A DNA stretch of 64,000 bases from Macrostomum lignano (Eukaryota): contig NIVC01001319.1 of assembly GCA_002269645.1 (NCBI GenBank), forward strand, positions 197,775 to 261,774, read 5' to 3'. The translations under genes and the position numbers were made by a program. Below, piece by piece: positions 7,998-20,345 of this stretch (its first letter is position 1; every line of letters starts with the position of its first letter). Below the pieces are notes generated by a model. It saw nothing but the letters and a program-made list of their open reading frames with translations, was not told where the DNA came from and did not search any database.

Positions 7998-8729
7998 ATG
8001 GATATTAGTGAAGGTTACAGAGTGCAGGTCGAAGAATTCGAAGGCCAGGAATACATTGCGATCAGGAAGTTTTACCGACATGGCAGCACAGCAAGCCTCA
8101 AGCCTGGTGTTCCTGGTTTCAACTTGAATGTGCAGCAGTGGACGAAGCTAAAGGAGTCAAAGCGCTCCCTGGTGAAGTCGGCTCTGAATAACGAGGTCAA
8201 GGTCATCAAGCTGGGCTTGGACAAATTTGTTCAAGTCAAGGATGGCCTCATCTGGCTGAAGCGGCTGCCTGAGGACTGCTGTGATGAATTTATGAAGCGC
8301 AACACCGTGCCGCTGTCTCCGAGGCTCTGGCAGAAGCTGTGGCAGACTTCGGACTGGATAGACCAGCAGCCATCAGAGCCCTACCAAGGCGCGGGGGCGA
8401 AGTACGATCTGAGCTCATCCGAAGATGAGAACGAAGACGCCACCGTCATACTGCCAGTCAAAACTGAGGCTGCTGAAGGCGAGGAGAAGGTCGGCTCACC
8501 ATCGGAGATGACAACCGACATCGAGGCTGTGACTTCCACACCTTTGGCCAGAGCCGGCACATCGACTGGGAACATCCCGGCGGAGGACACGGACCTGCAG
8601 CAGGATCCCGTGTGGTACCGATTCCGGGCTCATGCCGCTGAGGTGGAGAACAATCGGAAGCGGAAACTGCCATATCCTCTGCGCAGGCAGGAAACAATGA
8701 AGGTGTCTAAGCTGCGTTTTGAAGACTGA
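7998..8729 (+). CDS. PC4/Sub1-like ssDNA-binding domain protein (probable tandem PC4 domains, acidic/basic tail)
   Basis: YRVQVEEFEGQEYIAIRKFY...KPGVPGFNLNVQQWTKLKE matches the PC4 motif (VSVRDFKGK..IDIREYW..KPGRKGISLNPEQWSQLKE). A second degenerate repeat ends in PLSPRLWQKL. The ORF is intact and intronless. Confidence 0.8.
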   Translation: MDISEGYRVQVEEFEGQEYIAIRKFYRHGSTASLKPGVPGFNLNVQQWTKLKESKRSLVKSALNNEVKVIKLGLDKFVQVKDGLIWLKRLPEDCCDEFMKRNTVPLSPRLWQKLWQTSDWIDQQPSEPYQGAGAKYDLSSSEDENEDATVILPVKTEAAEGEEKVGSPSEMTTDIEAVTSTPLARAGTSTGNIPAEDTDLQQDPVWYRFRAHAAEVENNRKRKLPYPLRRQETMKVSKLRFED

Positions 8730-9037: not shown

Positions 9038-9241
9038 TGTAACCGCCCTTGTCGCCTGTCCGCTCCGTAGAGAGACGAACGCATGACCAGAGGGGGCAAT
9101 GACCGTAGGCTGCCTATGACCGGGCAATGACCTGACGGACCTCCAGCACCAGAATGTCTCGCCCACATGATTGATAGCTTTGGTAGCGCTTTGTGACCAG
9201 AGGGCCAAGGACCCACATGGACCCCACCTGTAGCCAAGGTG
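9038..9241 (-). mobile_element. LTR-like repeat, part 1 (continues at 17884-18810), split by the inner Polinton-like element
   Basis: Reverse complement of 32690-32893. The segment 17890-18810 is the reverse complement of 31769-32689. Begins TGTAACC. Confidence 0.8.
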
Positions 9242-9538
9242 AGTAGTATACGTTTGTACGCTTCTAGACCCAGAGCCCCTAATCAAACAGGCGATTTGAA
9301 GGGCTAGAGGGGGGACACGAGGGGGGACCAAAAAACACATCTAAACACCCTCAACACAATTAAAACACCCCCAATACCCCCAACACCCCCAACACTACAC
9401 AATACTACTAACACTACCCAATACTACTAACACTTCCAAACAATTCCCTCGCGTCCCCCCATTATTAGCCCTTCAAATCACCCGTTTGATAAGTGACGGA
9501 TCTAGAAACGTACAAATGTATACTACTACTTATAACCC
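9242..9538 (+). repeat. Left TIR of the inner element, itself bounded by ~65-bp inverted arms
   Basis: Reverse complement of 17584-17883 with few mismatches. The arms at 9242-9306 and 9466-9527 are imperfect inverted repeats of each other. Confidence 0.92.
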
Positions 9539-10279
9539 CAGGCTTATTAACCTATCACTTTCATCTACGATCCTAATATAAATTGATTGGACTCTATATT
9601 GATTTAAAGGATAATATATTGGGGTTTGGGGTGCAACAATTATTTTCTCTCCAATTGGAACAGCAAGAAACGGGATTGAATAAATGATTCCACGTTGAAC
9701 CAAAACTCCATTATCATCTGTTATATAACCGCCGTTTGAAAGGTCGGTTGTTATATTAATTGTATTGACTCCACCCTCAATGTTTCCCACCGTATCGCCG
9801 GTGCTTGATGTGGTAACTATTCGGGAATTAAATCCAAGTATGGTTCTGAGTGAATTTGCAATTGTGAAATCAACCTGATATCCAGATCCTAGTGATAGGG
9901 TGAATCTGCCAGATGGTAAATCAACCCCTATAACAATTGCGCCTGCTACCCAATCACCATTAGCTGTTAATTCTCCTTCTATATAAGCATTCAAGTCAGT
10001 ATAGCTATAAGCCCCCGGATTAACACCAAATGTTGTCCAATTAGCTTCTGAATCTTTAGAATATTTAAATTGATTATTTGTTGCATTAATTAATTGAGGC
10101 ATGTTAAAAACCGAAAATAGTATCAAACCAATTTGATAACTTAGGCTTTGATCGAGTTGTAACGGATCGAGCAATTGAATCCGTTGCTCGCTGCTTGTCA
10201 TTATAAACTGTAAGGTTGTACTAAATTTTGAATTAGTTCGATCTACCAATTGTTTTATAGTGTCTAATTTTGTTGCCAT
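9530..10279 (-). CDS. Minor capsid protein (penton), Polinton/adintovirus type
   Basis: Motifs PLQLD..YQIGL..FSVFN..NNQFKY..PGAYSYTDLNAYI and ITTDLSNGGY..IIYSI..P.IYYPL..IYIRIVDE. The stop codon lies inside the TIR and the C-terminus looks clipped. Confidence 0.8.
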   Translation of the reverse strand: MATKLDTIKQLVDRTNSKFSTTLQFIMTSSEQRIQLLDPLQLDQSLSYQIGLILFSVFNMPQLINATNNQFKYSKDSEANWTTFGVNPGAYSYTDLNAYIEGELTANGDWVAGAIVIGVDLPSGRFTLSLGSGYQVDFTIANSLRTILGFNSRIVTTSSTGDTVGNIEGGVNTINITTDLSNGGYITDDNGVLVQRGIIYSIPFLAVPIGEKIIVAPQTPIYYPLNQYRVQSIYIRIVDESDRLISLGL

Positions 10280-10297
10280 TTTTATAGTGGGAAAGCT

Positions 10298-11059
10298 TTA
10301 ATCCTCGTCCTCATTATCTTCTTTTATAAGATCTTTTAAGATTCGATTTTTTCTTTCTAACCTAGGGTTGATATATATGTGTTTGTATTGACTATCATCC
10401 CAAATTTTTTTACACATGCTTTTGAATGGTTTTGCATCCAACCCTGGATTAAATCTCGCGTGTATATTTTATAGATCATAGTTATCTAAATCAAACATTA
10501 CACAACAGCTAGCATTCTTTTTTATAATCGATTCTAATTCTCTAAAGGACTGTGTTAGATAAAAAGCCCCAATTCCATCTCCTCTGCCACTAACAAAAAT
10601 ATCCTTTTGCAATTCTTGATCGCCGTCGTTAATACAATCATCAAAAATAATTAGTGTTTTATCATGTTTTGGAATTTGATCATAGGATAATCGGGTTGAT
10701 ACTCTAACAGTTGGAGAATTGTTGTCTATATTTTCTGGATCTTCTGCCGTTGTTTTACATAAATCCTCAATGTCTGCTAGATTAAATCGCGGTTCGTCAT
10801 CATCCTCATATTGCTCATAAGCTCTTAACATTCTAAACAAGATATCTTTTTTTAATTTGTTTTTTATTCCATGTTTAAGAAATTCATAATATTTTATTCT
10901 AGGTTTGTTAGTATATATTAATAAATTATTATAGTCTAACATTCCATCGGTTGTTAACAGGTCATAAACAAAGTGTGCTTTTCCTTTACCCGACCCACCA
11001 ATTACTAAACAAAGAAAAGGATCGTTTGGAAATATTTTATTATGTTTTGCTTTTACCAT
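10298..11059 (-). pseudogene. A32/FtsK-like packaging ATPase with a premature stop
   Basis: Walker A GGSGKGKA (A in place of T/S), Walker B LIIFDD, and SGR and YLTQS motifs. An in-frame TAA at 10469-10471 is followed by the expected C-terminus NIHARFNPGLDAKPFKSMCKKIWDDSQY up to a stop at 10298-10300. Confidence 0.88.
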
Positions 11060-11110
11060 TTTTAAGGATATAATTTAAATAGGCTCGACGGTCGGAGACC
11101 TGCACTCATT

Positions 11111-13240
11111 TTACAATGGCGCGTCCTGAACAACGGTACCATCTGCTTTAGCAATTGACATATATTCCTCTAGAAACAATACGTGGGCGTCTAGTGCCTG
11201 ATTACCGTTTTCATTATTCTCTAACATAATTCAAACCAACAGCGCCTACGTTTTCTTTCTGTGCGGTTAGATCAAAAACAACCACTGGGTGAATGTTTAG
11301 AAACTCTGTGGGTGTGTACTGAGGAACAGCATACGCTTCATTTTTGACATAATCCTGATAATATTTTATAAAATCATTAACATTATTATTTGCAAGATTT
11401 AGATTAAGGGGGTCTTTAACCGTGAAGTGATACATTTTGGCTCTAGAAAGCTCCCATCCAGATTGAATGTATTTTAACCAATGAATGCGCTCCAAATAGC
11501 AAAAGCTGAGGACACGACCCCAACCTCAACCAATGAAAAACAGTTATGTACCATCCAATGCGATTAAGACTGAAAAGTACTATTAAAGCTCATGTTAACC
11601 AAGCAAGAAGCTGGCCCTTTTTGCTCGCTCCGCCTCTCCTCGCCCTTGCCTCTCCTTCGCCATTCTCCTAGCTTACCTCGTTTGACTATTTTGATTGACA
11701 CAGTTAGGGTCTCAACCCAAACACCAAAACTTATAAGTCGACTTACTAAAGCCAAACCAACACCCAATCCACGTTTCACAATAGACTGAACCTTCGGTTC
11801 ACCCGAACAACTAGAAACACCTTGTGACTTAAATCGAACGAGCTTCTTATTTGGAATTCCACCTTAGACATTATATTTTGTGAGAAAACATCTCGAGATT
11901 GTGACCATCAAATACAACGGTCTGTAAGTTACCATCAAGTGTTTGCATCATCAGGAAAAGTCAGTTGAATCCGCCGCCTCAGTTATTTGGCTCTCACATT
12001 GATATTTGAAGTAGAACAAGAGCCATAGAAGTGAGAGACCAGAAGAAGAACAATAACCTACATTTTAAAATATTTCAACCGGATAATATTGATCATCAAC
12101 CTGCAGGCGGATATTCTGGACATTAAACTCGTTAATAGCCGAAACCGCGTTGTCAGTTGCGGTGGCCGCCTGTGCTGCTACATCTCCTGATTGAAGCCAA
12201 TATAAATCCCCGTTTGCTCTTTTACTCCTTCTATTTGTTATTTTAAACCAAACAAAAATATATCTCACCCGGCGTTTTGATGTCAGTATTTGCCACTGGA
12301 ATGAATCCTGATTGTTATTAACGGTTCGCATAAAGTGTCGACGATTTAAATAAAATATTTCTTGATCAACCAATAACTGATCATCGATGTGTTTTAAAAG
12401 CGGAGCTGTTACCTCTATAGTTGGTACGACTAATTGAATTGAAGCTATGCGAACTGCTATATCGGTTGAAATCGAAGTTCCATAAAGTATCCTAGGCTGA
12501 TATCCACCAGATATTTGCAACTGTATACCAAATTTTAATCCTTTCCATACACGATTTGGTGAGAAGAACCCAAATAGTGGGAAGATTGAAAAGTCCTGCT
12601 CATATGCGGTTGCCGTGGTTAAAACCGCGACTGGAAATTTATTCTGGCGATCTATAAAACCGGTGTTAATATCTTTTGTGTTAGTCATTGTAGTTACAAC
12701 TGGAACTATATTGGTATTAAGATAAGCTATAAGAGCTGCGGTATCTGCGCCAGCTGCGTTTTGTACGTTAGGGAAAACTACTGCTTGTCCATTACCCTTA
12801 TCCGGCATCCACCCAACACTATCACCAACTTGTTTTGATAAATAAGTATAATTTAAATGTTTCAAAACTTCATTAATCTCTGCTGGGTTTGTTGATGTCT
12901 CAACCTCGGCTCCATTAACTGTTAGTTGGGCTTGGGAAAAACATTTATAAAACCAATCATTTTCTATAATAATACCAGAACGATCTGCGATATCGCCGGC
13001 TGCAAGAGCAGTTCCATCATTTCTAGTATACAACCATCTAACGCGGAAAAACGCATTTTTCATATCCAATATGCTGTTGGTTGCGCCGATGTCAAATGTT
13101 ACTGTTCCCGTAGTAAAATTGTTTGAATTATCGCTTGTTGGTTGGGTAAAAATTAAATCTCTTTTCCTGACCTCGTTAATATACTGACGATATTTTTTGA
13201 AATGAAATTTATCACTCCATATGGTTTTTGTTTCAGCCAT
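11111..13240 (-). pseudogene. Major capsid protein (putative double jelly-roll), interrupted by a solo LTR and a frameshift
   Basis: Polinton MCP-like N-terminal ORF 12065..13240. Removing 11423-12077 plus one TSD rejoins QYYPV-KDPLNLNL..HPVVVFDLTAQ. A 1-nt frameshift near 11230 precedes the tail NENGNQALDAHVLFLEEY. About 490 aa when repaired. Confidence 0.82.
11423..12077 (+). mobile_element. Solo LTR (655 bp)
   Basis: TGAAG...TTTCA ends, 4-bp TSD ACCG (11419-11422 and 12078-12081), three CCAAT boxes and a TATA-like tattaaa at ~11580. Excision restores the MCP frame. Confidence 0.85.
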
Positions 13241-13274
13241 TTTTTAAAGTTAAAAAAGTTTTTTATGTTAAAAA

Positions 13275-13949
13275 ATGAGTCAATTTATGGATGTTGATGA
13301 AGAGTTAGCGATTTATAAAGAGAAGCAAAAATATTCTGATTTTGTTAGAAACTTACAAAAAAGAAAGTTAGGAATACAGCTAGCTGGTGAGAAATTTGCT
13401 GCTCCTTTTGTTAATCCTATTACGGGGAAAATTAGTGAACTAGAAAAAACAGATAAAGACCTTCTTGAAAAAATTGCTAAGAATACGGAGCCAAAAGAGG
13501 ATGAAATTTTGGATGAGCCGCCTGCTTATGATGTTGATCAAGCACTATTGAGAGTTGCAGAGATTAGACGTGCAGAACGGGGTGAAGTTGATGAATATCC
13601 GAGAGCTGCACCACAAAGTATTGCTGTGGTGGATTTAGGTAATGATAATTACCGAATTGGTGGGGTTGATAAAAATCGGAATGAGCTATATAGAGAATTG
13701 GGTGGAGCAAATAATATTATTATGAACCCTAGGGTAAGATTTAACCCTGAATTATATACTAGGGATGAATTAGTAAGTGCTAAAAATTTTTATGATGAGT
13801 TAGGAGTAAGAGCTGCTAAAAATACCAGCTTGTATAAAAGAATTGTTGATTCTATAAATAACAAACCGGCTGTTGGCGAAGGATTTAAAACTCCGCGAAA
13901 ACTTGTTTTAGCTGCTGCGAAAGCTGCTGGACATACAGGAATTAATTAA
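13275..13949 (+). CDS. Polinton accessory protein with an N-terminal coiled-coil (possibly PW-like)
   Basis: Intact 224-aa ORF with AAAAATG start context. The N-terminal ..LQKRKLGIQLAGEKFAAPFVNPITGKISEL resembles, from memory, a conserved Polinton ORF; unverified. Confidence 0.6.
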   Translation: MSQFMDVDEELAIYKEKQKYSDFVRNLQKRKLGIQLAGEKFAAPFVNPITGKISELEKTDKDLLEKIAKNTEPKEDEILDEPPAYDVDQALLRVAEIRRAERGEVDEYPRAAPQSIAVVDLGNDNYRIGGVDKNRNELYRELGGANNIIMNPRVRFNPELYTRDELVSAKNFYDELGVRAAKNTSLYKRIVDSINNKPAVGEGFKTPRKLVLAAAKAAGHTGIN

Positions 13950-13964
13950 ATTTATTTTTTTAAA

Positions 13965-14467
13965 ATGGAAAATACGATAAAAGATTGTCTTTGTAAACCT
14001 ATTTATGATAAAGTTGGTTCTGACAGAATACTAAATGAAATATTTCAAGATGAATTAATAATTTCAAATCGTATTAAAACAATTCAGATGCGCCATGGAT
14101 CTCTTTATGAATTATTAGCTATTAAACATTTTGGTTTTGAAAAAGTAAATAAAATTGATTTAATTCATACCGAAAGAAAAATTGCGTTAGAGTTAAAATC
14201 TTCTGATAATACAGATAATTCATCAAGTCGATTTAGAAATATTCAAAAGTTATTAGAATTTAAATATGTTAATCCCGAATTTGATTTATGTTATATTTGC
14301 ATTAATAATACTACTAAAAACCCGTACAAAAGGTATTTGTTAATGGTGTTACTTTGTTAAGTGGGGAATTTGCTTTAAATTTTTTATATGGTGATCAATA
14401 TTTGGAAATTATTAAACTGATAGAAACATGTTTTTTAAACATTAAAAATGAGCCAACTTGTGTTTGA
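13965..14467 (+). pseudogene. PD-(D/E)xK type II restriction-endonuclease-like protein (Eco47II-like), frameshifted
   Basis: Motifs KTIQMRHGSLYE..GF..ID..ELKSSDNTDNSSS..KL. A frameshift at the A-run ~14328-14331 opens KKVFVNGVTLLSGEFALNFLYGDQYLEIIKLI to a stop at 14465-14467. The family assignment is by motif recognition only. Confidence 0.6.
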
Positions 14468-16028
14468 AGGTGGATTGTTGGATGTTCAAAAAGGATTAAC
14501 AAGCTTACCAAGCGTTTTTACTACTGGAAAATATACAAATGAATTACACATACCAGGGTATTCGTAAGCAGGTTAACCCGTGGCCTGAGTGAGGAAGGCA
14601 ATGTCCTTGCTAGTCTGCTAGTCACTATTAGTGGCGACACCTTCAAATTGCGTGAAACGCGTCATACAGCTTCAAGTACCACTTTAACTGAGAAATCTTT
14701 TGAAGGAACAGAGGTAACTCCTCTTCCCAAAGGTAACAAGCTTGAAGACATGGTGGCAATGCGCAGCCAAGCTCCTAAGTATTTAATATAAGGAGAAGGT
14801 TCAGAGAGCAGACGGAGGTGGGCGGTAATCATCACCGCTTAAAGTGTGCTCCAGCCTCTTTCGAAAGATTGTGGGGAAACTACCGGGGACAAGATTGGAT
14901 TTGAGGTTAAATCCGGATGATACTCCAAAGCCTGATTCAATTCCTATTAATGGCATTGATTGGTTAGCCTATTATCACGACTTAGCATACAGAGATGCTG
15001 ATAAGAACTCCCCCGAGGAAGCATTAAGATTAAAACATGAAGCCGATCGAAAAATGATTCAAGGATTAGATAATCTACAGGGCTTATCGGTAAGCCAAAG
15101 ATTAACTCGGTGGATGGTTAAAAAGATCTTGCAGTCTAAAGTTAAATTTGGTTTGGGAATTAATTACAATCAACATGGAAATAGTTGTGTTGATTGTCTG
15201 TTATTAAGTGGTGGTGGGTTAAGTTCTGATGAGGCAAAGGTTCTTCACAAAGAATACCGAAAGCCTAAATTTTATAGAAAAATCATGAACTTCAAAAAGA
15301 ATGAAATTTGGTATGCTGATTTAATGTCAATGCCGAACGAAAGAGGATATAAATATATCTTAACCATACTGGATGGTTTTACTCGATACGCGTGGGCTGT
15401 TCCTTTAAAATCCAAAAAAGGAGAGGAGGTTGCTGCTGCTTTTAGAAGCCTTGGAGAAAAAAGTGAAAGCTTGTGTGTTGACGAAGGAAAAGAATTTTAC
15501 AATCCTCACATGTATAAATTGTATCATTTTGAAAAAGGACAAGAAAGGAAAAAGGACGCGAATGGGGAGTATATTAATAAAATTTATTCTATTTATGGAG
15601 AAAGTAAAAACGCACTTATTGAAAGATTTAATCGAACTTTAGGTAAGAAATTGTGGTTTCAGTTTAGTTTGAATGGAAACCAAAAGTGGGTAAAAATATT
15701 GCCAGACGTTGTTAAAGATTATAATAATTCATATCATTCGGCTATAAAGATGACTCCTCAACAATCTTATAACAATCCTGAAAATGTTAAGGTTACCTTC
15801 GGGGACTTTGAAAAAAATAAAAAGAAACCTTTTAAGGTTGGTGATTCTGTTTATATCTATAAATGGAAAGATAAGTTTGAAAAAGGAAGAAAAGGATATT
15901 GGAAAATAAGTGAGAAATTTACTATCAGTAAAGTTTTAAATACAAATCCTACAACCTATATCATTGCTGATAAAGATGGTGAAGAAATATTGCGTTCTTT
16001 TTATGAGAACCAGATAATGTTAGTTTAG
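14448..16028 (+). pseudogene. Phospholipase A2-like (parvovirus/adintovirus type) plus retroviral-like DDE integrase fusion; exons 14448-14573 and 14883-16028
   Basis: Spliced product ELHIPGYS*AG|PGTRLDLRL..PINGID..AYYHDLAY (PLA2 Ca-loop and HD dyad). The rve core shows WYADL / VDEGKEF / IERFNRTL, then YNNSYHSAIKMTP and FKVGD. One in-frame TAA at 14565-14567 sits where Tyr/Phe is expected. Confidence 0.9.
14574..14882 (+). ncRNA. Group I self-splicing intron, IC1-like (with P5abc), no internal ORF
   Basis: P1: exon CAGGU pairs with IGS GCCUG (14583-14587) with the U.G pair at the splice site. P3: 14638-14644 with 14814-14820. P4: UGCGUG with UGCGCA. P5a A-rich bulge GGUAACAAGCU and a GAAA-looped P5b. 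P6a: CUCCU with AGGAG. P7: GAGCA (14806-14810) with UGCUC (14847-14851). P8: GGCGGU with ACCGCU. Removal restores G-P-G-T in frame. The terminal base is A rather than the expected omega-G. Confidence 0.88.
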
Positions 16029-16343
16029 TTTTATACTTTTAGTGACTCTAGGGGGTGGTGTATTTTTATCATCTGTTAATAAAGTTTTAAATGGTGTAGA
16101 GTATTCTTTATATTTAAATGAGTTAATAATTTGTTCAAGTTCAAAATACCATTCATCTCTATAAACTGGCGTTTTGAAATTGAACAAATTATCATTAAGA
16201 TATTCACTAACTTGAACTTCAATAGATTTGGTGTCGTATTTTTCTGGAAATTCTTTTATTAAATCTTTAATTTCATCTGTGGTTAATGGGTATATTTTTA
16301 CTCCTCGAATTTCTACATGTTTTATTAAATCCTTTTTTATCAT
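16020..16343 (-). CDS. Small hypothetical protein, KIYPL-motif family (paralog 1)
   Basis: IKHVEIRGVKIYPLTTDEI; the N-terminus may extend upstream through a frameshift. Confidence 0.6.
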   Translation of the reverse strand: MIKKDLIKHVEIRGVKIYPLTTDEIKDLIKEFPEKYDTKSIEVQVSEYLNDNLFNFKTPVYRDEWYFELEQIINSFKYKEYSTPFKTLLTDDKNTPPPRVTKSIKLN

Positions 16344-16354
16344 CTCTTTGATTT

Positions 16355-16738
16355 CTACCGTCTTATTAATAAAAATTTTTTAAGTTTTTCATAATTACCC
16401 TTCTCTATGCCATGTTTGTTAATAGTTTTTAGTGGTGGTAATGAATACTCTTTATATTTAAGATTACGAACATCAGCAAAAATATTCATTGCTGACTTAA
16501 ATGATCGTAAAGCTAGTTGATAATTATTCAAATATGTAACCAAATCAATAACATCATCAGTAATAATAATATTACTAACAAAGCTCAGGTGTCTTTTTTT
16601 AGTTTTATATTCTAGTTGGTTAATTTCAGATGGTTTTAATGGATATATTTTTACTCCTTCTAATAGTACAATTTTTATTAAACCATCATCTATCTTCTGT
16701 TTTAGATCTTTTAACCTTTGGCCAATTTCTGATTCCAT
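16355..16738 (-). CDS. Small hypothetical protein, KIYPL-motif family (paralog 2)
   Basis: IKIVLLEGVKIYPLKPSEI; AAAAATG start context; shares KYKEYS with paralog 1. Confidence 0.65.
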   Translation of the reverse strand: MESEIGQRLKDLKQKIDDGLIKIVLLEGVKIYPLKPSEINQLEYKTKKRHLSFVSNIIITDDVIDLVTYLNNYQLALRSFKSAMNIFADVRNLKYKEYSLPPLKTINKHGIEKGNYEKLKKFLLIRR

Positions 16739-16928
16739 TTTTATGGATAAATTTTATATAATTGTTTATTTGAGACAGCAAGGTAATAATTTTTTTATAA
16801 CATATAAAAACAATATTATCACTATTATTGTTACTAATAATTTTTTGACATTTGTTCAACCGTTATCAAACTTAAATTTTCATTAAGTTCATTAATTGGC
16901 ACATTTCCGATATAGGAATAATTTACCT

Positions 16929-17222
16929 TCATTTTTTATATATATTTTTAACAATAAATGTTGTTTCTGTTACAGAGTAATAGTTCATTTTTTTAATATT
17001 TTTTTCGCAGTTTAAACATTGTGCTAAAAGAAGACTTTGCTCCCCCTTATCCCAAATATAATCTAATTCTCCAATTTCAAGCGGATATATCTTTATATCT
17101 GGAAAAATATATACTTCATCGATTGTTTTATCCTTTAATAATTTTTTTATTGAATCGAGTGCATTGAACATTGTTTGGGTTGATTCAGTTATTGAAAAGT
17201 AGAGTCTGTTAACTAATTCCAT
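16929..17222 (-). CDS. Small hypothetical protein, KIYPL-motif family (paralog 3)
   Basis: NRLYFSI...IDEVYIFPDIKIYPLEIGEL; AAAAATG start context. Confidence 0.65.
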   Translation of the reverse strand: MELVNRLYFSITESTQTMFNALDSIKKLLKDKTIDEVYIFPDIKIYPLEIGELDYIWDKGEQSLLLAQCLNCEKNIKKMNYYSVTETTFIVKNIYKK

Positions 17223-17224
17223 TT

Positions 17225-17539
17225 TTACATAAAAATTTCACTTTCATTCTCCGAATCGCTAGTTTCATATGAACTATTTGTTGAGTTGGAATCATCTGAA
17301 CGAACCTCCCAATCATCCGAATTTAAATAATCTCCAAGTTGAAATATTAACTCCCCCTCTTGTTCTAAATCATACATCCCATCCAACTCTAGCGGATAAA
17401 GTTTTAGTTCTGTTTTGTCATCATATTTTAAATAAACTTCATCAATTATTCCATTCAAAATATGCTGTTTTATAATCTCTGAATTTTTAGCAACAGTCTC
17501 AAAAGTATCACTAACTGAAAAGGTGTAAACTCGGTTCAT
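17225..17539 (-). CDS. Small hypothetical protein, KIYPL-motif family (paralog 4), acidic tail
   Basis: MNRVYTFSV...IDEVYLKY..KLYPLELDG. The likely start is the AAAAATG at 17539, not the track start inside the TIR. Confidence 0.65.
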   Translation of the reverse strand: MNRVYTFSVSDTFETVAKNSEIIKQHILNGIIDEVYLKYDDKTELKLYPLELDGMYDLEQEGELIFQLGDYLNSDDWEVRSDDSNSTNSSYETSDSENESEIFM

Positions 17540-17583
17540 TTTTAGTAACAGAAAAAGACCCTTCGCGCCGCAGGCGCGGCGAC

Positions 17584-17883
17584 GGGTTATATGTAGTAGT
17601 AGGCATTTGTACGCTTCTAGATCCGTCACTTATCAAACGGGTGATTTGAAGGGCTAATAATGGGGGGACGCGAGGGAATTGTTTGGAAGTGTTAGTAGTA
17701 TTGGGTAGTGTTAGTAGTATTGTGTAGTGTTGGGGGTGTTGGGGGGTATTGGGGGTGTTTTAATTGTGTTGAGGGTGTTTAGATGTGTTTTTTGGTTCCC
17801 CCCTCGTGTCCCCCCCTCTAACCCTTCAAATCGCCTGTTTGATTAGGGGCTCTGGGTCTAGAAGCGTACAAATGTATACTACT
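17584..17883 (-). repeat. Right TIR of the inner element
   Basis: Inverted copy of 9242-9538; G-run-rich core at ~17730-17780. Confidence 0.92.
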
Positions 17884-18810
17884 AAGGTGCAATAGTTGGT
17901 CACTCGGTCATAGTATGACCGAGTGGCTGCCACCACTCTATGTGACCTGGCGCACCTGGATCTTTCTACCAGACCTCTCGAGGCTAGAGCCCCGCCTGGG
18001 ATGGTTACCAGGAGATTTAGGCTAACAGGGGAGACACATGCAGCCGAGTACAGGGACTCTGCTTGGGGCATGATCGGGAACTCTGGGCTCAATCTGGAGG
18101 ATTTCTCAGCAGGGGATCCTTTGTGGCTGTGAGCGAGGCTGACTTGCGACTTTGATTACTAAGAGTAGTATGAGGGGAACATGTACTGTCTACAGTTTAG
18201 ATTGCTCAGGGCGAAGGGACGCGTCAGCATCGGGTTGCAACCTTCCTACTGCCATTCTGTGCCAAGACTCGCTAATCCCTCTACTGCACGCACACACGGC
18301 ACCGCAGCACGCACTCACAGGCGGGCTTTGCATGGGAGAGGCCATTAGCTTACCCAAACTTCCTTATGCTTAGCCACCCCGGGAGAAAGGCTTAGCAAGC
18401 CATGAGTGAAATGATGGTGAAAGAGTGAATAATGATGAGGTTAGTTAATAGTTAATAATTAGGCCCTAAGGCAAATAGTCAGGCAATTAGGCGGCTTCAC
18501 TATTGAGTAAAATACAGCAAAAGTTACGGTATCACAATTGGCTCAGCTCTCTAATTAAGCAATGGCAAATAGGCAAACCCCGGATAAGTAAAGGCGATTG
18601 GAGCACAAATTAGTAATAGGAACTTACCGGCAGCTGCACAGAGAGAGAGAGCGGCGGAGTGACCGAGGGCGGCTGTAGGCTGCAGTCAGGCAGACAGTGA
18701 AGCGGCGATGCGCTGAAGCGACGAGGCGCTGATGTAGATCAGGCGATGCTGATGATGCTGGGCGGTACCAGACCGCTGGCCGATAGACGAGCTTACTTGG
18801 GAGCTAAGGT
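17884..18810 (-). mobile_element. LTR-like repeat, part 2 (truncated at 18810)
   Basis: Near-identical reverse complement of 31769-32695. Confidence 0.8.
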
Positions 18811-20345
18811 CAACCAACGAGCCAACGAGTTCTACCCGAAAATGGACAGCAGTGGATCCCCTGGACCCTGAAAGTTCAGGGTTCCCCAGCGTTGACGAAA
18901 GAAATCTGGAAGAGCTTAGCATCGGCCCATACCACGTTCTTCAGTCAAAACGCTACATCGAAAACGTCAGAGTTCATGAGGTGCTCAGTAGCTACGCTGG
19001 AGACTCGTGGCGCGATTTCGAATTGTTGATTTCTGAACTGCCAAGCCATTTAAAATGCTGGAAGTTTCATCAGCGAGCGCCACCAAAGGGGTGGAGCAGT
19101 AAGTTTGGAGAATGGAGGCCATCTTGGATATATTTAGCCGTTCTTCATTCCCGTCATCGGTCAAAAACTTACCGAGTTGTCCTTCGTATTTGCGAAACTG
19201 CAAGTGGTAACCGATTCGGAGTTCGTGACTCGGGGCTGCTGCGTCTGCATGGCTACTTTTCATCCTTAAAGGCCGGAAGCAGGACAGCAGGGTGTGACAG
19301 TCATGTTATGGCTGTGGTTAGAATGCTAGGCTGTTATGCATATCACCCCGAAAGCTACAACATGTGCGGCAGCAGCTTCCGATTTATTGACAGTGCTTTG
19401 CCAAAAGCACTGATTGCCAATCTTTACAATGATCAATCTGGTGGTCATCCAGCTCCAAATGCACCTCGCAGAGACAGTGCTGAATCGCAGCAAGATGAAC
19501 AGAGGCACAGTTTAAATGCTACTGGTTCATTGAATTCGCCGAAGAAGTTATTTGGGTTGCCAAATAATGGCCTGCAGTGCTACGTAAATGCAGCAGTGCA
19601 ATTGTTTCTCTGCCTGCATTCTAATGGATGCATTTTAAAAGAGACTAGCAACGACTAGCATCGAGAGCTGCTTCGTCTTCTGACGGAGATGCAACAGCGG
19701 TCTGCAACAGTCACTCCACTGTTAACGGCAGTTCGGTTGCAACATCCAGATTCATTTCAAACAAATCAGCACCATTGCGTCAACGAATTTGTTCAAACGC
19801 TTCTAATACATCTGGAATTTCTGTCATCAGATACTTTCACAGAATTTTCACTCATTCAAACTTGTCGGGATTGCCAGCGCACAAGTGCTGAAGTTCCTGT
19901 TGGCACAATCGATAACAGAGTGATTTGCATTCCTCTCTGTCAATTTGAGCGCTCAATTGTCAGTTTAGACAAAATCTTCTGCGCTTTTGTCGCTCCTCAA
20001 GTAGTGAAATGTTCGGACGCCAATTGCCTGGGCGATTGTAATCGAGAGATCGTAGTAACACCTGGAAAGTTTACCCTGATTTATCTTGATCGTGCTAGTA
20101 TGGATGGCCACCTAAAGCTTCAAACTCCTGTAAGCTTTTCTTCAAGGTCAGGGGGTGTTTCTACACTTGGTAAGCCAGTGGCCACAATATCACACCATGG
20201 AAACCGACTGAAATCGGGACATTTCACAGCAAGCGTACTGAGCTGTGTGTGGACGAATATTGACGACATGAAAGTTACGTCAGACTATAACCCGTTCGTA
20301 CGTGAGCCTGAGTGCATCGTGCTCGTTGCACTTTTAAACTCGTAA
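18811..20345 (+). pseudogene. 5'-truncated ISL2EU-like (DDE_Tnp_4) transposase C-terminus with SWIM-like finger, fused in frame to a USP/peptidase C19 domain
   Basis: KW..D..FP..E..L...G.YH..QSKRYI..HSRH..KTY..KAGSRTAGCDSHV..V..LG. USP Cys box GLPNNGLQCYVNAAVQ and His box HHGNRLKSGHFTA..W..IDDMKV. ORFs 18852 and 19689 are in the same frame, split by a single TAG at 19656-19658. Confidence 0.7.

Follow-up and report, generated by a model that had tools for sequence, protein, structure and literature searches.

A Polinton with a nuclease gene and an intron

The window, a 64,000-nt stretch of Macrostomum lignano contig NIVC01001319.1, contained an 8.6-kb Polinton at positions 9242-17883, with 300-bp TIRs, a 6-bp TSD and an internal deletion (Table 1). 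Among the features that define Polintons/Mavericks, the TIRs, the 6-bp TSD, the rve integrase, the A32 ATPase and the capsid gene were found in the window copy, and PolB was found in its sisters, where a protein-primed PolB gene (PF03175) and the PLA2 gene were separated by about 10 kb (e.g. C3469, C506 and C166). As the window copy lacked PolB, the protease-like gene and other left-arm genes present in sisters, it was classified as an internally deleted Polinton. The DJR-like capsid profile PF21738 was matched above its cut-off by the capsid gene of family 2 (defined below), and PF08398 by the intron-less PLA2-integrase ORFs of sisters. The flanking DNA of the element contained an ORF with a PC4 domain (7998-8729) and one with a UCH domain (19689-20345). 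One host gene resembled TRAF/meprin MATH clusters, among which animal phyla are the most frequent, and by this single gene the host is probably an animal.

Table 1. Features of the integrated Polinton, in positions of the window
Feature	Position	Strand	Evidence or remark
Left TSD, 6 bp	9236-9241	no strand	identical 6 bases at 17884-17889
Left TIR, AGTAGT end	9242-9538	no strand	97% over 300 nt against 17584-17883
249-aa ORF, probably minor capsid protein	9530-10279	-	named from its position; no Pfam match
Packaging ATPase, Pox_A32-like	10469-11059	-	Pfam, E = 8.5e-5
Major capsid protein	12065-13240	-	25-28% identity to family-2 capsid gene
Conserved 224-aa gene, left border of nuclease slot	13275-13949	+	
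Eco47II-family PD-(D/E)xK nuclease gene, free-standing, frameshifted	13965-14467	+	Pfam, homologue alignment
PLA2-integrase exon 1, ending in a Gly codon	14448-14573	+	in-frame stop at 14565-14567 in window copy
ORF-less group I-type intron, 309 nt, between Gly and Pro codons of the PLA2 motif	14574-14882	+	comparison with intron-less alleles
PLA2-integrase exon 2, remaining PLA2 domain and rve integrase	14883-16028	+	Pfam rve, E = 2.3e-7
Right TIR	17584-17883	no strand	pairs with left TIR

With its nuclease frameshift, its stop codon in exon 1 and its internal deletion, the window copy is a dead member of its group; all protein analyses were performed on naturally open sister copies. Two ARRANGEMENTS were distinguished, about 60% identical in protein and different in gene order: in family 1 the nuclease was free-standing beside the intron, as it is in the window, and in family 2 it lay inside the intron. 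One family-2 element (L202:8052-9401) also encoded an F5/8 type C domain protein, which may serve in attachment.

Reading frame and family of the nuclease

The PD-(D/E)xK-type ORF first noticed in a sequence-only reading of the window was present, opening at 13965 and closing at 14360 after 131 aa; it contained the motif ID65..ELK78..TDNSSS. The C-terminal segment lay in a different frame (14318-14467), the frameshift falling near 14320-14335, and the residues E49, D65, E76 and K78 were retained. The length of 168 aa given by that reading for the repaired protein was one residue too high, sisters with the same stop having 167 aa, and its estimate of about 105 bp between nuclease and intron site agreed with the measured distance (about 106 nt, with the intron starting at 14574). 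It had also pointed to an overlap between the end of the nuclease gene (14467) and the start of the PLA2-integrase (14448). This overlap of 20 nt exists in the window copy but is not conserved: in sisters L015-L018 the nuclease stopped at 161 aa, upstream of the PLA2-integrase start, and the start-codon overlap was therefore rejected as a meaningful feature.

The resemblance to Eco47II, at first a matter of motif recognition, was borne out by the Pfam profile RE_Eco47II (PF09553), which matched the window piece with E = 0.0011 and 19 bits, under its cut-off of 25.9 bits. Family-1 copies scored under this cut-off (19 and 20.6 bits), whereas a family-2 copy exceeded it (30.1 bits), and 96 of 112 aligned homologues, taken from the matches listed (lists of 9 and 150), matched the profile. 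ESM Atlas features led to the Eco47II and EcoO109I clusters (score 0.94, 179 shared features). Residues D65, E76 and K78 were at least 90% conserved across the 112 sequences, and the catalytic residues were invariant in all 22 distinct open copies. A PDB sequence search returned nothing at E <= 1, searches of phage GenBank and NCBIfam gave no match to the nuclease, and PADLOC gave none for the Polinton copies. No additional DNA-binding domain was seen in the protein of only about 167 aa. Eco47II itself is assigned to PD-(D/E)xK in a passage of PMC3424549 and tied to GGNCC recognition in passages of PMC12376442 and PMC10305163. Judged by profile and motif, the ORF is an Eco47II-family PD-(D/E)xK nuclease gene of an integrated Polinton; GGNCC is its predicted recognition word, Pfam membership alone not fixing specificity.

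In the whole genome (764 Mb), 91 of 99 candidates were nuclease matches. The frame was open in 25 of 37 family-1 and 10 of 18 family-2 copies and broken in the others. Over the first 115 codons of open frames, and leaving L119 and L181 aside, dN/dS was 0.27 in family 1 (14 sequences), 0.18 in family 2 (8 sequences) and 0.09 between families, a comparison with saturated dS. These ratios indicate that many nuclease copies are under purifying selection.

The group I-type intron

An ORF-less intron had likewise been proposed from the window alone, and its boundaries were fixed through intron-less alleles (Table 1). The insertion point was GGN^CC, within the Gly-Pro codons of the PLA2 motif, in family 1, in family 2 and in the metagenome contig L181, and the bases around the junction differed widely among sisters. 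Covariation in eight introns revealed P3, P4, P7 and four other helices (as named by us), with 99% of 304 cells paired; 12 of the 38 pairs had changed on both sides, a value reached in 0 of 500 shuffles, and slid controls gave 38-56%. A U-G pair at the 5' splice site was recognized by eye. Rfam contained no group I match to the intron at E <= 0.1; an isrG match fell on a simple repeat and was dismissed as chance. Folding of the whole intron was unremarkable (z = -0.51). On the evidence of its P3/P4/P7 core, the intron is of group I type and is predicted to be self-splicing.

Group I introns near-universally end in G. Among the 90 family-1 type-A introns whose junctions were clean, 68 ended in A instead, as did the window intron (14882), although family-1 introns kept the G-C pair that marks the guanosine site in P7; all 14 family-2 introns with a readable end finished in G. 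No intron-skipping joint was found in contigs of four sequencing runs, which are uninformative on splicing, being assembled contigs from runs only presumed to be RNA.

A second, different intron core occupied the same position in L002, L049 and about 21 more family-1 loci, and in these copies (about 23) the exons do not, by our reading, rejoin as Gly-Pro-Gly-Thr. Three diverged intron-less family-2 copies (L174, L175, L176) had Gly-Gln at the junction and had lost GGNCC, possibly as an escape allele or through decay. From both groups of copies it follows that Gly-Pro may not be strictly required. At L168:2770-3490, a family-2 intron without the nuclease displayed a tandem-repeat expansion and apparently lacked part of the core. 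The same core motif occurred in 99 stretches of IMG/VR contigs, many of them giant-virus-like, which are a likely source of the intron.

Position of the nuclease relative to the intron

The loci compared were the top 20 nuclease loci and 120 PLA2 loci out of 150 matches listed (from 494 candidates), with 20 further nuclease loci and 20 more PLA2 loci of family-2 type added. In family 1, the slot from the 224-aa gene to exon 1 was measurable in 126 of 134 loci, eight truncated loci being dropped. Among these 126 of the loci listed, 37 had the nuclease and the intron, 86 an HNH-like gene and the intron, three an HNH-like gene without the intron, and none the nuclease without the intron. The free-standing nuclease thus adjoined an ORF-less intron, the layout of collaborative homing, in 37 of 37 carriers. 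Co-occurrence across sister elements, named by the sequence-only reading as a check on the nuclease-intron link, was therefore complete among nuclease carriers, but it did not set them apart from HNH-like carriers (86 of 89 with the intron; Fisher p = 0.55), the intron being nearly fixed in family 1 (123/126).

The alternative occupant of the slot, present in 89 family-1 loci (e.g. L192:5522-6091), possessed CxxC motifs and was HNH/EndoVII-like (phrog_1035, E = 4e-9 and 3e-11); it was itself diverse, and two unrelated nucleases thus compete for one slot. Mapped on a tree of the capsid region, slot state required 21 changes compared to 23.4 in shuffles (24 of 200 as low), and on the exon-2 tree 15 compared to 23.2 (0 of 200 as low). 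Slot content is accordingly shuffled between backgrounds: it is almost random with respect to the capsid region but partly linked to exon 2, which indicates frequent gene conversion or recombination.

In family 2, a few dozen bases of intron preceded the nuclease, which then continued into the ribozyme core, in 18 of the 20 loci fetched (of the other two, one belonged to family 1 and one was without exon 1). Eighteen of 26 further loci were intron-less family-2 alleles with an intact junction. None of the intron-less elements (3 of family 1 and 18 of family 2, the latter checked over fetched stretches and contigs) possessed the nuclease; in family 2 this co-occurrence is built in, as the gene lies inside the intron.

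The same arrangement was encountered outside these loci. Contig L181 had the same nuclease in the same group I intron at the same insertion site, the database homologues P0002-5, P0007, P0009, P0011 and P0016 read through into the intron core, and the family-2 join between nuclease and core was seen in contigs of three of four sequencing runs, one of which may be the source of the assembly. From these joins, the tie between nuclease and intron is real and extends beyond the Macrostomum genome. The link proposed from the window alone is in this respect strongly supported, the nuclease being intron-encoded in family 2 and L181 and the insertion site being the recognition word of the family, while the roles proposed with it, homing or action against competitors, are predictions from this arrangement. 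None of 80 intron-bearing viral loci (L213-L292) had the nuclease or the PLA2-integrase, the positive control being detected, and single-protein scans of metagenome and viral contigs, as well as a PLA2-integrase alignment, yielded no outside Polintons with long flanks.

Depletion of GGNCC in the elements

Gly-Pro codons always spell GGNCC, so that insertion of the intron splits an Eco47II site. It was predicted that the elements should be without GGNCC, and the sites were counted. In the window element, GGNCC was the lowest among 16 palindromic words, with two sites where 13.2 were expected and none in the region from the nuclease to the PLA2-integrase. A family-1 carrier of 14.2 kb had 0 against 16.6 expected and a family-2 carrier of 9.6 kb 0 against 11.6; in both, GGWCC and GGSCC were alike missing and words with a single mismatch were near expectation. 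Across 121 family-1 segments (290 kb), which are related rather than independent copies, only three GGNCC sites were found, all at the junctions of the three intron-less alleles. The junction was the sole GGNCC in about 8.5 kb of the intron-less elements L192 and L193 and was accompanied by one site near the element end in L204 and L205; L194 had further sites in an inserted-looking stretch, and L207 had four, with no element boundary set around them.

Dinucleotide shuffles never gave so low a count (0 of 300 in each of six elements), and codon-order shuffles did so in 0-2 of 300. Synonymous-codon shuffles were as low in 15, 7, 72, 25, 30 and 26 of 300 for the six elements, a null that is weak taken alone. 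Among 1024 gapped words, GGNCC ranked first and second in depletion. Gly-Pro dipeptides numbered 0 against 6.2 expected in one family and 0 against 5.3 in the other; much of the GGNCC signal is avoidance at the dipeptide level.

Concerning the background, the observed/expected ratio of GGNCC was 0.63 in host DNA and had a median of 0.63 in 79 other intron-bearing viral loci; among those with at least 8 sites expected, 0 of 36 had zero and two were at or below 0.15. Two unrelated viral contigs, L241 (3/31.7) and L250 (1/8.4), were strongly GGNCC-poor, nearly to the level of the Polintons, although the stretches fetched from them contained no homologue of the nuclease. A third element type, which has no nuclease, was not depleted in its coding parts (2/2.6 and 4/1.6). 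With expectations cut to 55%, P was about 1e-4 and about 2e-3. Elements with the HNH-like gene in the slot and intron-less elements were likewise purged, so that the pressure would have acted on the whole population, and the purge could predate capture of the nuclease. An absence of GCNGC from family-2 intron-less segments (0/24.4) was dismissed, as it came from 12 near-identical copies with about two sites expected in each. The disappearance of GGNCC from entire elements points to a short site of restriction type and not to the long site of a classical homing enzyme.

Search for a methylase and probable origin of the nuclease

That the element has no methyltransferase, as first reported, holds for the window copy, which is itself internally deleted. 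In the genome, the C5 methylase profile PF00145 had 12 matches on nine contigs (15 of 15 candidates scored), none of them on nuclease contigs, and no methylase was found among the element ORFs scanned, which covered 14.2 kb of a single full-length sister in family 1 and some 10 kb from elements of family 2. The neighbours of the nuclease were the 224-aa gene and the PLA2-integrase, or the intron, and not the adjacent methyltransferase of a restriction-modification (R-M) system. In five giant-virus-like loci (L182, L183, L185, L187, L189), a distant homologue of the nuclease adjoined a C5 methylase, and the Polinton nuclease was probably captured from such a giant-virus R-M pair. In the best trees, rooted on R-M enzymes, family 1 nested among the intron-encoded forms, a hint that its nuclease may have escaped from the intron; monophyly of the intron-encoded forms was not rejected (AU p = 0.088).

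Proposed mechanism and rival explanations

We consider it fairly probable that the nuclease is a captured GGNCC cutter, with carriers protected by site loss and by the intron, that cuts intron-less rivals and thereby serves homing or exclusion. This reading builds on what the loci display: membership of the Eco47II family, a place in or beside the intron, the insertion point, the purge, purifying selection and the absence of the nuclease from intron-less elements. A GGNCC-recognising endonuclease that had left its methylase behind would be carried by Polintons, which would be protected by loss of GGNCC throughout the carrier element and by a group I intron splitting the one site forced by the Gly-Pro codons of PLA2. 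When two elements meet in one cell, the enzyme would cut the intron-less relative at its single site. Repair from the carrier would then copy the intron in, and the nuclease would come along, either as part of the intron (family 2) or from the neighbouring slot (family 1); alternatively, the cut would destroy the rival element. Exposure to nuclease carriers could explain why HNH carriers retain the intron. Against this reading stand the expectation that a 5-bp cutter would attack host DNA as well, the family-1 co-occurrence (p = 0.55) and the mildly low GGNCC of host DNA and of viruses generally. We hold more tentatively, and with some doubt, the stronger form of the proposal, in which the captured 5-bp enzyme would be homing enzyme and weapon in one methylase-free restriction system, self being defined by deletion of the site from the entire element genome, Gly-Pro banned from the element's proteins and the one essential site masked by the intron.

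Host DNA would be spared if the nuclease were instead a homing endonuclease with a long site, spanning some 14 bp or more at the PLA2 junction; the loss of GGNCC would then be a legacy of giant-virus restriction. Most characterised homing enzymes have long sites according to an excerpt of PMC3984707, part of PMC3424549 describes a homing enzyme of the PD-(D/E)xK class whose site measures 17 bp, Eco47II-like R-M pairs occur on giant-virus-like contigs, and in family 2 and L181 the nuclease is intron-encoded at a conserved motif. We nevertheless regard a long site as unlikely: sisters differ widely in the sequence next to the junction, the small protein displays no further DNA-binding domain, and the purge affects GGWCC and GGSCC in all contexts and in two families only about 60% identical. 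A short site would equally suit a methylase-free weapon, directed during productive replication against the DNA of the host or against co-infecting viruses, with the intron as a mere immunity patch and no homing. Precedents exist in two sources: host DNA is recycled by chlorovirus systems, and marseillevirus R-M endonucleases could degrade the DNA of marseilleviruses without the system (10.1101/2019.12.21.884833), and an intron endonuclease mediates phage interference (PMC11620839); moreover, with the intron in 123 of 126 family-1 loci few homing targets are left, yet the gene is under purifying selection. But the gene entered the intron in several lineages, as homing would select, and the shuffled slot content speaks for frequent gene conversion or recombination, for which reasons a weapon without homing appears improbable as a full account, although it and the captured-cutter reading can both be partly true. 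That the gene is neutral cargo, a decaying passenger near the intron by accident, is very improbable: broken frames do occur, in the window copy and in 12 of 37 family-1 and 8 of 18 family-2 copies, and most family-1 elements hold the other gene in the slot, but dN/dS is well below 1, catalytic residues are invariant, the nuclease is intron-encoded in other lineages and the purged word is the site of its family.

Comparison with known systems

With the Eco47II-family type II restriction enzymes (PF09553; GGNCC), the Polinton nuclease shares the profile match, the PD-(D/E)xK motif and the predicted site; it differs in having no cognate methylase that could be found, in being carried by Polintons, in its position in or beside a group I intron, and in self-protection that is apparently achieved by site loss. 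I-Ssp6803I (PF11645) and I-Bth0305I (Vsr-like) are restriction-fold nucleases in group I introns that break their target by insertion, and the Polinton nuclease, where intron-encoded, is predicted to match them in this. The two belong to other families (no PF11645 match was obtained here) and have long sites, 17 bp for Ssp6803I in a passage of PMC3424549, whereas the site here is apparently of 5 bp and the setting is virus-like and eukaryotic.

Collaborative homing in phages (Zeng et al. 2009; Bonocora and Shub 2009), as described in sections of PMC3984707 and PMC11296320, resembles the family-1 arrangement, in which the free-standing nuclease is separated by about 106 nt from an ORF-less intron at its likely target. 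Compared with those descriptions, the present system adds free-standing and intron-encoded states in one genome, a slot shared with an HNH-like gene, a short site and the purge. The intron HNH endonuclease gp210 of phage PhiPA3, which acts in interference competition according to an excerpt of PMC11620839, is similarly an intron-linked nuclease that may harm co-infecting relatives; its fold is different, and its target in that excerpt is a specific site in the rival phage and not a short self-purged word.

Group I introns, free-standing nucleases and PLA2 domains are each on record for Polinton-type elements: protist Polinton-like viruses (PLVs) have group I introns and HNH/GIY-YIG genes (part of PMC12220804), and adintoviruses carry PLA2X genes (part of PMC8502044). 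The PLV introns were described only from protist PLVs, lie in another gene and have no encoded nuclease identified, and the available text of PMC12220804 mentions neither a restriction-family enzyme nor a site purge. Such a system is not mentioned in the available parts of 10.1101/2023.08.22.554363 and PMC8502044 either. Our literature search found no report of an Eco47II homing endonuclease, of intron homing at GGNCC or of this Polinton intron system, though supplements of PLV surveys could list such introns.

Significance

In the prevailing view, homing endonucleases need long sites and restriction enzymes need a methylase. The element described here appears to break both rules, with the site purge and the intron as a third solution. 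If the captured-cutter reading is true, a nuclease family would be added to those of group I introns, and group I introns would be shown in Polintons integrated in a nuclear genome, probably that of an animal. The hypothesis names both the word that would be cut and the place of the cut. The inside-intron, free-standing and empty states found in one genome offer a snapshot of mobile introns gaining or losing a nuclease, and the two states of one nuclease bear on the long-standing question of the origin of mobile introns.
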